64,000 bases of DNA, taken from contig DQFO01000014.1 in the NCBI GenBank assembly GCA_003525075.1, positions 64,032 through 128,031 of the forward strand, in the 5' to 3' direction. This document shows positions 7,770-30,547 of the stretch, one piece after another (within the stretch, counting starts at the first letter, position 1; each line of letters opens with the position of its first letter). The stretch is from Clostridiales bacterium (GTDB taxonomy: Bacteria; Bacillota; Clostridia; TANB77; CAG-508). The notes beneath the pieces are model-generated. The model saw only the letters and a program-made list of their open reading frames with translations. It did not search any database and was not told the DNA's origin. The translations under genes and the position numbers were made by a program.

Positions 7770-8756
7770 CTATCTTTTTAATTTTTTAAATCCTCTTCTA
7801 ATTTTAAACAATCCTCTTCCTATTGCAGGCATATTCATTATTATAAAGTTTTCTATATAATAAATTAATGTTTCTGTTTTATATAATTCATGAAATATTC
7901 CCCATCCTTTAAAATTAAAGTTTTTCTTTTTTTGAATATCTTGAAAATATTTATATGCTTTTTCATTTTGTTTTTGAAGTTTTTCTGGAAATATTTCTTT
8001 ATGTTTTACATATGTACCAAATACACCTAATTTTACATTTATGAATAATTCTCTTACTTGTTCTAATTCTTGAAAATTATGTGATATCTTATTTGTTCCA
8101 ACTTGATTATTTCCATGTTGCCTATATTTTATATACTTTTCTGGCATATATGCCAATTTTCCATTTAATGCAATAACAATTCCAATCCAATGGTCATGTA
8201 TTAAATATTTAGAATCTGTTGGAAATGGTAATATTTTTTCTATAAATTCTTTTGTAGATAATATTGTACAACCTGTAACTACATTATATAAATAATTTAC
8301 TTTATAACTTCCAATGTATTTATTTATTTTTCTATTCAATAACATGAAATCTCCAAAAGAAGGATATATTGTTTCTAATTTTTCATTTACTACTTCTAAG
8401 TCTCCAAAAACTAAATCTGCTCCTGTTTCTTTTTGTTTTTGAATAGTTTTTTCTATTTTTTCTGGAAGCCATACATCATCTTGATCTGATAACATATAAA
8501 ATTTGCTTTCTACTTGTCTTAGTAAAAATTCAAAATTTTTATTTGAACCTAAGTTCCTGTCGTGTAAAAATATTTTTATTCTATCATCTTTTTTCTCATA
8601 TTCTTGCAATATTTCTTGTGTTCTATCTTTTGAACAATCATCTGAAATTAAAATTCTTATATTTTTATATGTTTGTTTTATTATACTATCTAATTGTTCT
8701 CTTAAATATTTTTCTCCATTATATGTTGCTACAAGAACATCTACTTTTTCTTTCAT
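7770..8756 (-). CDS. GT2 glycosyltransferase, rhamnosyltransferase-like
   Basis: VLVATYNGEKYLREQLDSIIKQTYKNIRILISDDCS. Paralog of 10158-11138. Confidence 0.7.
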   Translation of the reverse strand: MKEKVDVLVATYNGEKYLREQLDSIIKQTYKNIRILISDDCSKDRTQEILQEYEKKDDRIKIFLHDRNLGSNKNFEFLLRQVESKFYMLSDQDDVWLPEKIEKTIQKQKETGADLVFGDLEVVNEKLETIYPSFGDFMLLNRKINKYIGSYKVNYLYNVVTGCTILSTKEFIEKILPFPTDSKYLIHDHWIGIVIALNGKLAYMPEKYIKYRQHGNNQVGTNKISHNFQELEQVRELFINVKLGVFGTYVKHKEIFPEKLQKQNEKAYKYFQDIQKKKNFNFKGWGIFHELYKTETLIYYIENFIIMNMPAIGRGLFKIRRGFKKLKR

Positions 8757-28469: not shown

Positions 28470-29396
28470 TTATTCATGTCTTCTATCAACTGCATAACTA
28501 CTTCCAATAATAGATTTTGCAACATGTTTTACTTGTGCTCCTATTTCACCTATTTCCAATATATTGGCAAATCTATCCTTATCTGCAATTACAGCTCCTA
28601 TAGAAATTGATGTTAAAGAAAATTGTTCTATAATTCCTTTTCTATTTGCAACCTCTATATATCCTTTTTCTAGATCCTCTTCAGTAAAGAATTTTGTTAC
28701 CCCTTCATCAAAGTTAGCAATTATTAATTGGCATATATTATCAACATCTAATGTTGGAACGATTGCTATAAAATCATCTCCACCTATATGCCCTATAAAA
28801 TAATTTTCCTTAAAACTTTGATGAATACATTTTAAAATTGTATCTGCTGTATATTCAATTATTTGATCTCCTTTTAAAAATCCATATACATCATTATATG
28901 CTTTAAAATTATCCAAATCTAAATATAAAACTGAAAATTCCTCTTTATTTGTAATTCTTTTCTTCAATTCTGCATGAATTTGTACATTTCCTGGTAAACC
29001 TGTTAATGGACTTATTCTTCTATTCATTTTCAATAATCTATCTAAGTTTTTTATTGTATAATACAAATATTCTGTATCAACTGGTTTTTTTATATAATAT
29101 TCAACTGATTGTTCTAAAACTTCTAATTTATGATATTTATCAGTATTTGATGACACAACAATTATTGGTGTTATTTGATTATCTTCATCTGTTCTTATCT
29201 GTTTACATAGGCCTGTAATATCTCTATCTATTGAATCTTCATTTATAATTATCAAAAAAGGTATATTTTTTAATGTTATATCTATTTGTTCAGTTTTTAC
29301 TCCAATAAATTTGAACTCTTTATCATTTCTAAATAATTCTTTAAAAATCGGAATAGATGATTCATCATCATCTATTACATATATATCTTGTGCCAT
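28470..29396 (-). CDS. Response-regulator-like diguanylate cyclase (REC-like N-domain plus GGDEF domain with a GGDDF variant motif)
   Basis: N-terminal receiver-like fold (YVIDDDES...IIINEDS). GGDEF domain (RISPLTGLPGN...HIGGDDFIAIV). Confidence 0.75.
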   Translation of the reverse strand: MAQDIYVIDDDESSIPIFKELFRNDKEFKFIGVKTEQIDITLKNIPFLIIINEDSIDRDITGLCKQIRTDEDNQITPIIVVSSNTDKYHKLEVLEQSVEYYIKKPVDTEYLYYTIKNLDRLLKMNRRISPLTGLPGNVQIHAELKKRITNKEEFSVLYLDLDNFKAYNDVYGFLKGDQIIEYTADTILKCIHQSFKENYFIGHIGGDDFIAIVPTLDVDNICQLIIANFDEGVTKFFTEEDLEKGYIEVANRKGIIEQFSLTSISIGAVIADKDRFANILEIGEIGAQVKHVAKSIIGSSYAVDRRHE

Positions 29397-29421
29397 ATTT
29401 TCCCTCGTTTCTTATTTTATT

Positions 29422-30393
29422 CTATGGTAAACTACATTGTGCCTTCTTTGAAGTTGTCAAATTCTCATTTGATGCCTCTATTATTAATTTATTATCAAAT
29501 CCTTTTTGTAGTACAATTTCTGTTGTATATTCACTTGAATTTACATCTATATTTACTTTTTCTTCATCATTTAAAGTTATTTTTACATTTTTTAGTATAA
29601 CTTCGTCTTTTATTGATATTGAATAATAAACATTTCCATCAAGCTTCTTTATCGCTTGAACTTTTATTTCTGGTACTTTTGCTCCAATTACTACTTGTGT
29701 TTTTTCTGTTTTTATTCCTTTATCATCTATTACTTCTATTTTTAGCGTATGTTTTCCAACTGGTGCTATAATTCTTTCTGAATATTGTGTTGAATTAACT
29801 TCTATTACTTTCTCTTGTTCATCATCCCATTTATATGATACTTTCTTTATTTTTTCAACTGATGTAACTGTTAATTTTACAGCATTATCCACATTATTTA
29901 AATCTATTTGTGCTAAATTACCTACAGTATATTCTTGTTCATATTCTACAAGATGATTCATTTCATCTGTTGCTTTTACAACTATCTTGTTTTTTCCTCC
30001 ATCCAATTTTACTGTAGTTTTTATATCTTGTTGATTATTTCCTTCAATAACTTTTTCATCTTGATTGTTTAGTGTATATATAACTTGTGTTATTCCTTTT
30101 GGATGGTGAACTGAAATGTCAACAGAACTTTCATCTTCATTAAAACTAAAATTAACTACTGGTGTTGCATTTTCTTCAATATTTTTATTTATTTTGTCTT
30201 TTGCATATATACTTCCAGCAATAATACATATCCCTAAAATTAATATACTTATTGCAAAAAAGATTACTATTTTATTTATTTCAATAACTGATTTTTCTTT
30301 ATATACTTTTTGTTTTTTATTTTGATTATAATTTCCATAGTTTATATTATTATTTTTGAATTGTTCTTCACCTGTATCTAATATTTGATTCAT
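29422..30393 (-). CDS. Single-pass membrane protein with three tandem beta-sandwich (Ig-like) repeats; co-operonic with the GGDEF gene
   Basis: N-terminal transmembrane segment (IVIFFAISILILGICIIAGSIYA), then three repeats of about 75 aa. Confidence 0.5.
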   Translation of the reverse strand: MNQILDTGEEQFKNNNINYGNYNQNKKQKVYKEKSVIEINKIVIFFAISILILGICIIAGSIYAKDKINKNIEENATPVVNFSFNEDESSVDISVHHPKGITQVIYTLNNQDEKVIEGNNQQDIKTTVKLDGGKNKIVVKATDEMNHLVEYEQEYTVGNLAQIDLNNVDNAVKLTVTSVEKIKKVSYKWDDEQEKVIEVNSTQYSERIIAPVGKHTLKIEVIDDKGIKTEKTQVVIGAKVPEIKVQAIKKLDGNVYYSISIKDEVILKNVKITLNDEEKVNIDVNSSEYTTEIVLQKGFDNKLIIEASNENLTTSKKAQCSLP

Positions 30394-30504
30394 TTTTTCA
30401 CCTCATGTTTTTTTATTTCTATGTTGAATTATAACATATTGATTTTTAGTTGTAAATAGTAAGATTTAATAAAATTTTTTCCTATTTTATTATTATTACA
30501 CAAA

Positions 30505-30547
30505 TCAAAAGACTAGATTATTGTAAATCTAGTCTTTTGATTTTATT
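30505..30547. terminator. Intrinsic terminator downstream of ldh
   Basis: Perfect 14-bp stem TCAAAAGACTAGAT / ATCTAGTCTTTTGA with an 8-nt loop, then TTTTATT. Confidence 0.6.

Follow-up and report, generated by a model that had tools for sequence, protein, structure and literature searches.

A conserved gene pair of Clostridia encoding an Ig-repeat membrane protein and a pseudo-receiver GGDDF protein of a large subfamily

Proteins with a GGDEF domain are usually sorted into 'active' and 'degenerate' forms on the basis of their signature motif. We analyzed a stretch of 64,000 nucleotides from a Clostridiales bacterium (GenBank assembly GCA_003525075.1, contig DQFO01000014.1, positions 64,032 to 128,031 of the forward strand), hereafter the window, and concentrated on two adjacent genes. 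Gene A codes for a membrane protein with immunoglobulin (Ig)-like repeats, and gene B for a protein that combines a receiver-like (REC) domain with a GGDEF-fold domain whose motif reads GGDDF. Using sequence profile searches, structure prediction and comparison of gene-neighborhoods we show that the two genes are linked across related genomes, and suggest that they might form a signaling module at the cell envelope.

The gene pair

The window has a GC content of about 26% and carries most of its genes on the minus strand, including both members of the pair. The elements of the locus, in window coordinates, are:

29422..30393, minus strand: gene A, 323 amino acids, type-II single-pass membrane protein
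28470..29396, minus strand: gene B, 308 amino acids, pseudo-receiver, linker helix and GGDEF-fold (GGDDF) protein
29397..29421, minus strand: spacer of 25 nucleotides between A and B, with the ribosome-binding-site-like ACGAGGG (sequence)
30399..30404, minus strand: ribosome-binding site GAGGTG of gene A; an identical GAGGTG lies 5' of the A orthologues
30428..30456, minus strand: promoter-like TTTACA, 17 nucleotides, TATAAT, with a TG extension (11 of 12 consensus matches)
30502..30543, no strand assigned: bidirectional terminator hairpin past ldh, 18-bp stem followed by a T-run (sequence)
28411..28460, minus strand: intrinsic terminator 3' of B, common to the convergent plus strand gene (hairpin and U-run)

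The original prediction had placed the membrane protein gene 25 nucleotides upstream of the REC-GGDEF gene, and both minus-strand open reading frames (ORFs) and the exact gap were verified. The promoter-like site, 35 nucleotides 5' of the start codon of A, is the best of the region, as judged by its match to the consensus only. The hairpin 3' of B (about 28411-28460) has a predicted energy of -26.6 kcal/mol (z = -7.2), and the terminator past ldh is predicted to separate the unit from upstream transcription. Given the promoter-like site, the ribosome-binding sites, the short gap and the flanking terminators, A and B look like a self-contained bicistronic unit.

Protein B and its GGDDF subfamily

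Protein B matches the Pfam GGDEF profile (PF00990) with 58.7 bits (cut-off 23.8), the alignment covering profile positions 5-99 of 161. Its AlphaFold2 (AF2) model, with a predicted local distance difference test score (pLDDT) of 96, displays a receiver fold, a long helix (residues 108-126) and a complete GGDEF fold; together with the motif GHIGGDDF this bears out the REC-GGDEF architecture that had been proposed for it. The top Foldseek matches are PleD, DgcR and WspR (E ~1e-19), SiaD and TpbB are also among the fold matches, and the GGDEF part gives a template-modeling score of ~0.75 to isolated GGDEF domains. No solved structure was found to be nearer to B than the ordinary cyclases, and sequence alignments to solved structures end at about residues 220-243. 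The parts of the domain that bear on its chemistry are:

28473..29015, minus strand: GGDEF-fold domain, residues 128-308 (Pfam, AF2)
28866..28919, minus strand: metal, phosphate and guanine segment D160-L-D-N-F-K165-A-Y-N168-D-V-Y-G-F-L-K-G-D177 (PleD alignment)
28800..28811, minus strand: K196-E-N-Y199 at the position of an RxxD product-inhibition site, the I-site (sequence)
28770..28790, minus strand: signature H203-I-G-G-D207-D208-F, with His for PleD R366 and Asp for PleD E371
28635..28643, minus strand: R252-K-G254 in a beta-hairpin specific to the family; R252 never varies and G254 hardly does
28479..28529, minus strand: K290...K294-S-I-I-G-S299 ... D304-R-R, the DRR tail being family-specific (family alignment)

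The complete GHIGGDDF spans residues 202-209 (window 28770-28793), and GGDDF residues 205-209. In PleD, the metal ligands are D327 and E370, the phosphates are contacted by K332 and K442/R446, N335 and D344 specify guanine, and R366 is also important. We mapped the residues of B by means of phmmer and profile alignments to PleD, in which D160, K165, N168 and D177 align with D327, K332, N335 and D344. K294 we take to be the equivalent of K442, with S299 at the site of R446, an assignment made from the position of the motif and not from an alignment. Six of the nine key PleD-type nucleotide- and metal-binding residues (D160, K165, N168, D177, D207 and K294) are therefore kept. B thus has the domain order, fold and long alpha5/linker helix of PleD, WspR and DgcR, and conserves the equivalents of PleD D327, K332, N335, D344, E370 and K442, but departs from these cyclases in having an Asn at the phospho-acceptor site, GGDDF as its motif, His for R366, Ser for R446 and no I-site, as well as in possessing the hairpin with an invariant Arg and the C-terminal DRR.

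In the alignment of I-site and catalytic residues, which the original prediction had named as a check, the equivalents of R366, E371 and R446 are replaced and there is no RxxD. The I-site is located five residues ahead of the GGDEF motif, at -9 to -6 counted from its first Gly; here B has KENY, and the B family as a whole shows no conserved site either. The idea that B might be an I-site receptor was accordingly rejected. Two other identities were also discarded. A Hypr enzyme, i.e. a synthase of cyclic GMP-AMP (cGAMP), is not indicated, as D177 is kept and there is no Ser at the position of PleD D344. A Cas10-Cmr2 palm2 identity fell well short, with 14.7 bits against a cut-off of 27.

To place B among its relatives we scanned 1.84 billion cluster representatives (50% clustering), of which 892 at E<=1e-30 align with B over its full length. 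An alignment of 69 of these (28-73% identity) revealed D160, F164, K165, Y171, G202, G205, G206, D207, D208, R252 and K294 to be invariant, and L131, L134, P135, G136, N168, D169, H203, F209, G254, K290, S299 and R306 to be nearly so. N168 is present in 68 of the 69 members, and position 177 is Asp in 61 and Asn in the remaining 8. The motif itself is just as uniform: among 150 representatives, 143 of which had a detectable motif, GGDD[F/Y/L] was found in 141 and a His at -2 in 140, and all of 120 profile hits combined GGDD[F/Y] with His at -2. At least 140 sequence clusters, and up to about 892, thus retain GHIGGDD[F/Y]. The subfamily can be summarized by the signature NPLTGLPGN...DLDNFKAYNDxYGFxxGD...GHIGGDDF...RxG...AKxxxGS...DRR. 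On this sequence evidence GGDDF is the signature of a large and broad subfamily and not a lesion in gene B. The suggestion of an enzymatically altered cyclase thus fits the data, but as a property of the whole subfamily and not one private to this gene.

Members of the family come from Clostridia, Elusimicrobia and Acidimicrobiia, among others, and their annotations go no further than 'diguanylate cyclase' or 'response regulator'. A model specific to B is absent from NCBIfam, and searches of the literature on 'GGDDF' and on pseudo-receiver GGDEF proteins turned up nothing about the subfamily. The stand-alone REC-GGDDF form is its dominant architecture. Fusions also occur. Those to EAL, to the HD-GYP-type HD_5 or to another GGDEF domain of the canonical type would, by sequence, connect the subfamily with the metabolism of cyclic di-GMP (c-di-GMP), yet they cut both ways, as discussed below; in further members the unit is joined to hybrid histidine kinases. 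Fused REC-GGDDF proteins in our collection are P0263, P0271, P0272, P0274, P0275, P0283, P0325, P0299 and P0366, and the Elusimicrobia forms are about 570 residues in length.

The fourth residue of the motif, E371 in PleD, is the catalytic base acting across the dimer, and an Asp preserves this chemistry (PMC8835794). The GGDDF domain of Geobacter sulfurreducens GSU1937 is active in vivo and made both c-di-GMP and cGAMP (PMC8835794), and it is, in the searchable literature, the sole active GGDDF enzyme, described as the first active example and belonging to an unrelated subfamily. Like B, GSU1937 has its GGDDF motif in a protein with no other catalytic domain. It differs in being a Hypr enzyme anchored in the membrane, whose guanine-specifying residue is Ser instead of the Asp177 of B, and B further has a receiver-fold N-terminus.

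The pseudo-receiver of B

The N-terminal part of B scores slightly below the Pfam cut-off for Response_reg (PF00072; 28.3 bits against 30.2), but its AF2 fold is clearly that of a receiver, and a profile of the B family matches the REC domain of PleD at 1e-33. Its elements are:

29019..29396, minus strand: receiver-fold domain and alpha5/linker helix, residues 1-126 (Pfam, PleD alignment, AF2)
29235..29246, minus strand: I-N52-E-D, with Asn at the phospho-acceptor site corresponding to PleD D53 (phmmer alignment)

The domain keeps the acidic pocket D9-D11 along with S82, Y101 and K104. However, position 52 is Asn (as I-N-E-D) in all 28 of the A-linked B orthologues, and because the phospho-acceptor Asp is missing B is not a response regulator of the conventional kind. 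Across the family at large Asp is found here in 52 of 68 members, and those with Asn cluster among the closest relatives of B. A parallel is offered by the adaptor domain D2 of PleD, which likewise has Asn at the phospho-acceptor site (phmmer pairs LIIINED of B with LVIVNAA of PleD); PleD, though, also possesses a true receiver, D1, that is phosphorylated, whereas the pseudo-receiver of B is its only N-terminal domain. No HisKA/HATPase gene is found within about 10 kb on either side of the pair.

Within the A-linked clade the receiver is conserved to nearly the same degree as the catalytic domain (mean conservation of 0.80 for REC and 0.82 for GGDEF), and the clade-specific residues concentrate round the former receiver active site and the alpha4-beta5-alpha5 face. 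The ratio of non-synonymous to synonymous substitution rates (dN/dS) of the whole gene is 0.05-0.08, implying strong purifying selection. These patterns point to a domain that has been repurposed rather than one that is dead. The original prediction had also considered that B might be a fully degenerate protein: the receiver does lack its phospho-acceptor Asp, but the retention of most of the key residues in the GGDEF domain and the selection on the gene go against degeneracy of the whole.

Protein A

Protein A was modeled with AlphaFold2 on an alignment of 39 homologues (mean pLDDT 84, above 90 within the repeats). The model has a disordered stretch at residues 1-35, followed by a single long transmembrane helix (residues 39-75) and three beta-sandwiches of 76-79 residues each, so that the three repeats of about 75 residues proposed earlier, for which structure prediction had been suggested as a test, are confirmed. 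The elements of A are:

30364..30393, minus strand: cytoplasmic N-terminal motif MNQILDTGEE (39-homologue alignment)
30205..30273, minus strand: transmembrane segment, residues 41-63 (sequence and AF2)
29923..30159, minus strand: Ig/FN3-like beta-sandwich repeat 1, residues 79-157 (AF2, Foldseek, self-alignment)
29683..29910, minus strand: Ig/FN3-like repeat 2, residues 162-237 (AF2, Foldseek, self-alignment)
29434..29670, minus strand: Ig/FN3-like repeat 3, residues 242-320 (AF2, Foldseek, self-alignment)

A Lys-rich stretch precedes the transmembrane segment, and hence the N-terminus is likely to be cytoplasmic. The repeats are mutually similar (z = 4.7-5.2 in pairwise alignment against shuffled sequences), and the closest solved folds recovered by Foldseek are triple BIg/FN3 arrays, e.g. 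SiiE and fibronectin. Pfam has no match above cut-off, the best being DUF6097 (16.0 bits, cut-off 27.5) and PKD (15.5 bits, cut-off 23.5), and NCBIfam yielded no match and has no specific model for A. The family is small, with 138 proteins at E<=1e-3, all of them from metagenome-assembled genomes (MAGs) of uncultured gut-type Clostridia; the nearest named MAG among these sources is 'Clostridium sp. 26_21'.

While the ectodomain evolves fast (dN/dS of A is 0.32-0.41 against the nearest species), the extreme N-terminus does not. All 39 homologues begin with an unchanged MNQIL, even where overall identity is as low as about 27%, and the consensus reads MNQILxTG(D/E). The codons of the motif vary synonymously among the orthologues and the start codon may be ATG, GTG or TTG, which shows selection to act on the peptide itself.

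Linkage of A and B and their gene-neighborhoods

We next surveyed the linkage of the two genes with a profile derived from an alignment of eight A sequences, taking one genome per species. This recovered 27 species loci with an A homologue (23-69% identity), in each of which a same-strand B orthologue (55-93% identity) lies downstream of A; four further metagenomic or genomic places agree with this. The flanks of the pair, on the other hand, are reshuffled, with at least four different contexts across the loci. In the window and its closest relatives a phosphotransferase system (PTS)-HPr-PtsI-ldh cluster lies upstream of A, while in locus L003 (the related loci are numbered with the prefix L) rpsF-ssb-rpsR lies upstream of the pair and nrdD downstream.

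In about 16 related loci the gene directly upstream of A encodes a giant surface protein of 1190-1930 residues. These proteins are mutually homologous and carry DUF11/CLIPPER, Cna_B and thioester (TED) domains, and share a C-terminal region of 400 residues with an xxTG motif, a hydrophobic or transmembrane segment and a basic tail at the very end. Their genes end 100-450 nucleotides upstream of A, or about 1.6-1.7 kb upstream in L011 and L031. A second recurrent neighbor is a CmpB-like multi-pass membrane protein (PF06541, E ~1e-51 to 1e-53), which is encoded between A and B in L003, L025-L030 and L039; the 64-kb window has no copy of it. The locations of both are as follows:

Giant surface protein: L001 56-4630; L012-L014, L016, L017, L020, L023, L024 and L026-L031; L039 1-2895
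C-terminal fragment of a giant surface protein: L011 5-349
CmpB-like gene in the A-B interval: L003 5979-6773; L025 3119-3937; L026 7123-7905; L027 6949-7770; L039 4132-4986

A more distant pair, in L040, comprises an A-like (28% identity) and a B-like (43% identity) protein, adjoined by genes for a SpaA-type pilin and a sortase. Still other Asn-type relatives of B have no A next to them and are found after ksgA or beside genes for different membrane proteins, in many cases followed by an Amidase_3 gene; the more distant Asn52 B-like genes of L037 and L038 lie directly 3' of ksgA. The contexts of three family members with an intact receiver are unrelated, indicating that the partnership with A is specific to a lineage and is not a trait of the family. 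The exact 308-residue B sequence occurs in about 8000 blocks of a public assembly index, including contigs of more than 1 Mb, and this wide indexing suggests that the host is a very prevalent uncultured organism, apparently of the gut.

The domain architecture of B is therefore ordinary as such. What is unusual is the size and uniformity of the GGDDF/His/Ser subfamily, along with the conserved pseudo-receiver and the fact that throughout the lineage B is paired with an Ig-repeat membrane protein that lacks annotation, in the vicinity of giant adhesins.

Variant forms of B and other features of the neighborhood

Several B orthologues have a disrupted reading frame. In four species (L027-L030) one additional C separates the Thr codon that ends SPLT from the Gly codon that opens GLPGN. 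The zero frame then reads CGG and meets a stop 17 codons on, giving a receiver-only product of 149 residues, while the +1 frame retains GLPGNIQIQAEMKKRL. Over the next 11 codons, synonymous and non-synonymous differences number 12 and 6 if read in the +1 frame and 3 and 17 in the zero frame. Among the roughly 3600 codons at these loci CGG is used 0-1 times. Judged from these sequences, the site looks like a conserved 'hungry-codon' +1 programmed frameshift; alternatively, the gene is split and restarts at an internal ATG. In L003/L004 the orthologue is divided into ORFs of 207 and 116 residues with a frame change just before GHIGGDDF. This split is seen in two independent assemblies, and may represent a pseudogene or a shared assembly error. 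L041 has tandem B-like genes, namely a fragment ending in ...GHIGGDDF...DRRKK followed by a full paralogue of 303 residues. The positions concerned are:

Extra C in B orthologues (..TTA ACN C GGN..): L027 ~8163-8200; L028 ~7992; L029 ~8028; L030 ~8032
Split B orthologue: L003/L004 6851-7775
Tandem B-like genes: L041 2-529 and 815-1726

Distant Clostridia repeatedly have an Amidase_3 (CwlD-like) gene downstream of their B-like genes. That of the window lies about 8.5 kb downstream of B, past an apparent insertion comprising a glycosyltransferase, MscL and plus strand genes. The copies are:

Amidase_3: window 19424-19990, minus strand; L026 9120-9686; L035 2093-2806; L037 7263-7994; L041 1783-2334

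On the other side of the terminator that it has in common with B lies a convergent plus strand ORF (27679-28416) coding for a P-loop, thymidylate-kinase-like protein (PF02223, 1.5e-8; weak PADLOC match to PDC-M51B, 4e-5). It forms, especially at 27800-28400, an island of 46% GC in the 26% GC window. With the PHP-domain ORF at 26791-27675 it makes up a plus strand islet (26791-28416) that was probably acquired horizontally. For A and B themselves PADLOC gave no match, and a role in defense was dropped. A search with Rfam recovered no family at gathering score in the window (no tRNA, riboswitch or leader), and a single tRNA and nothing else in 11 related loci.

Proposed function and competing explanations

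With a confidence that we would put at about even, we propose that A and B constitute a module at the cell envelope in which a GTP-using cyclase is controlled by a partner and independently of phosphorylation; the activity of B as an enzyme, its product, its contact with A and the connection with adhesins are all inferred. B would be the soluble output, made up of the receiver fold, the long linker helix and the GGDEF fold. It would bind GTP-Mg and most likely, as a dimer, make c-di-GMP or a very close relative. A cyclase of the c-di-GMP type is favored since the nucleotide- and metal-binding site is invariant, as is the carboxylate that takes the place of the base, and because stand-alone REC-GGDDF proteins dominate the family and a GGDDF enzyme is known to work. 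The active site would have been re-tooled, with Asp as the cross-dimer base, His for Arg366 and Ser for Arg446, and would operate without a product-inhibition site.

Given that Asn is found in every A-linked orthologue and that the receiver is as conserved as the catalytic domain, B is likely to be activated by protein contact and not by a histidine kinase. The most economical candidate for the partner is A, whose MNQILxTG(D/E) tail could couple events at the extracellular Ig-like repeats to dimerization of B, and we infer from the linkage and the sequence conservation that this tail might contact the receiver. In the more divergent relatives the CmpB-like membrane protein may be an alternative partner. 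The concept of a cyclase switched by a partner from the same operon, and not by phosphorylation, is shared with YfiN/TpbB-YfiR and SiaD-SiaC, even though their partners are unrelated to A and the A-B contact is a predicted one.

The physiological theme is likely to be the status of the surface or of an adhesin, in view of the giant wall-anchored adhesin genes directly upstream of A in many relatives. These adhesins, together with the conserved A-B linkage, make the original prediction of a surface-sensing c-di-GMP module plausible. The juxtaposition of a giant adhesin with membrane and GGDEF-fold proteins in those loci recalls LapD-LapG-LapA. This comparison is an analogy only: there is no EAL domain, LapG-like protease or outer membrane, and the adhesin gene is not found in the window.

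Several observations weigh against this proposal. These include the substitutions R366 to H203, E371 to D208 and R446 to S299, each fixed across the family, and a motif that, with Asp at its fourth position, departs from the signature [G/A/S]G[D/E]E[F/Y] accepted for active enzymes. The fusions of the family to EAL, HD-GYP and canonical GGDEF domains follow the pattern of regulatory GGDEF domains that sense nucleotides. The giant adhesin gene is absent from the 64-kb window, and the A-like protein of the distant L040 pair lacks MNQIL. No conserved partner or kinase was found near three family members with an intact receiver. Motif and hidden Markov model (HMM) scans of all window ORFs detected no other GGDEF, EAL, HD-GYP or PilZ-like gene, and Rfam no c-di-GMP riboswitch in the window or in 11 related loci. 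Other GGDDF proteins, e.g. PA3258, have been reported to be inactive (PMC8835794).

Much of this would be expected if B were a pseudo-enzyme that binds a nucleotide without cyclizing it, its output being nucleotide sensing or protein binding. This is a serious alternative, though on the whole a doubtful one. The GTP-sensing GEDEF domain of Caulobacter PdeA (CC3396) and the c-di-GMP-independent GGDEF protein GdpS furnish parallels. The three replaced catalytic positions, the motif and the inactivity of proteins such as PA3258, the fusions, and the dearth of further c-di-GMP components in the window and related loci would all be accommodated. Yet most family members are stand-alone REC-GGDDF proteins, making the domain their sole output; the two carboxylates that bind metal, like the putative base D208, show no variation (100% invariance); GSU1937 sets a precedent for an active GGDDF; and there is no I-site by which B could act as a c-di-GMP receptor.

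An active subfamily might also make something other than c-di-GMP, such as linear pppGpG, a dinucleotide that is mixed or has another linkage, or an oligonucleotide of larger size. A new chemistry would then lie behind the His, Asp, Ser, R252 and DRR changes that are fixed in it. The family-wide uniformity of the non-canonical residues and the extra invariant basic residues (R252, R305/R306) are compatible with this, GGDD recalls the Cas10 palm domain (the weak Pfam match of 14.7 bits), and proteins with both GGDDF and canonical GGDEF make more sense if their products differ. However, the pair N168/D177 that specifies guanine is conserved, B is like ordinary REC-GGDEF cyclases in its overall fold and its linker, the GGDDF enzyme GSU1937 made c-di-GMP and cGAMP and no new product, and the Cas10 match is far under its cut-off; we regard this explanation as unlikely. 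An extended version, which we consider quite improbable, is that the GHIGGDDF proteins are a separate class of the GGDEF fold with their own chemistry or product, one of which has, in this gut lineage of Clostridia, shed its control by phosphorylation and is now the cytoplasmic output of an adhesin-linked envelope sensor; the giant adhesin, A, the CmpB-like protein and B would then form a Gram-positive outside-in adhesion signaling system of an undescribed kind.

Finally, that A and B are mere syntenic neighbors on one transcript, with B regulated by something else, is very unlikely: some B-like pseudo-receiver proteins do lack an A-like neighbor and stand after ksgA or beside other membrane proteins, and the CmpB-like gene can intervene, but the linkage holds in all 27 species loci despite reshuffled flanks (PTS/ldh, giant adhesin, rpsF-ssb-rpsR, nrdD), reaches a pair as diverged as that of L040, and is accompanied by short spacers and shared outer terminators.

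Implications

The B subfamily is very large and phylogenetically broad, with GGDDF and two other catalytic substitutions fixed in it. If it is active, censuses of c-di-GMP signaling based on the motif miscount it, and if it makes another product it would be a new source of a second messenger; it would be of real interest should its chemistry prove distinct. Since the host of the pair is very common, apparently in the gut, control of an adhesin or of the cell surface by A and B would matter biologically.

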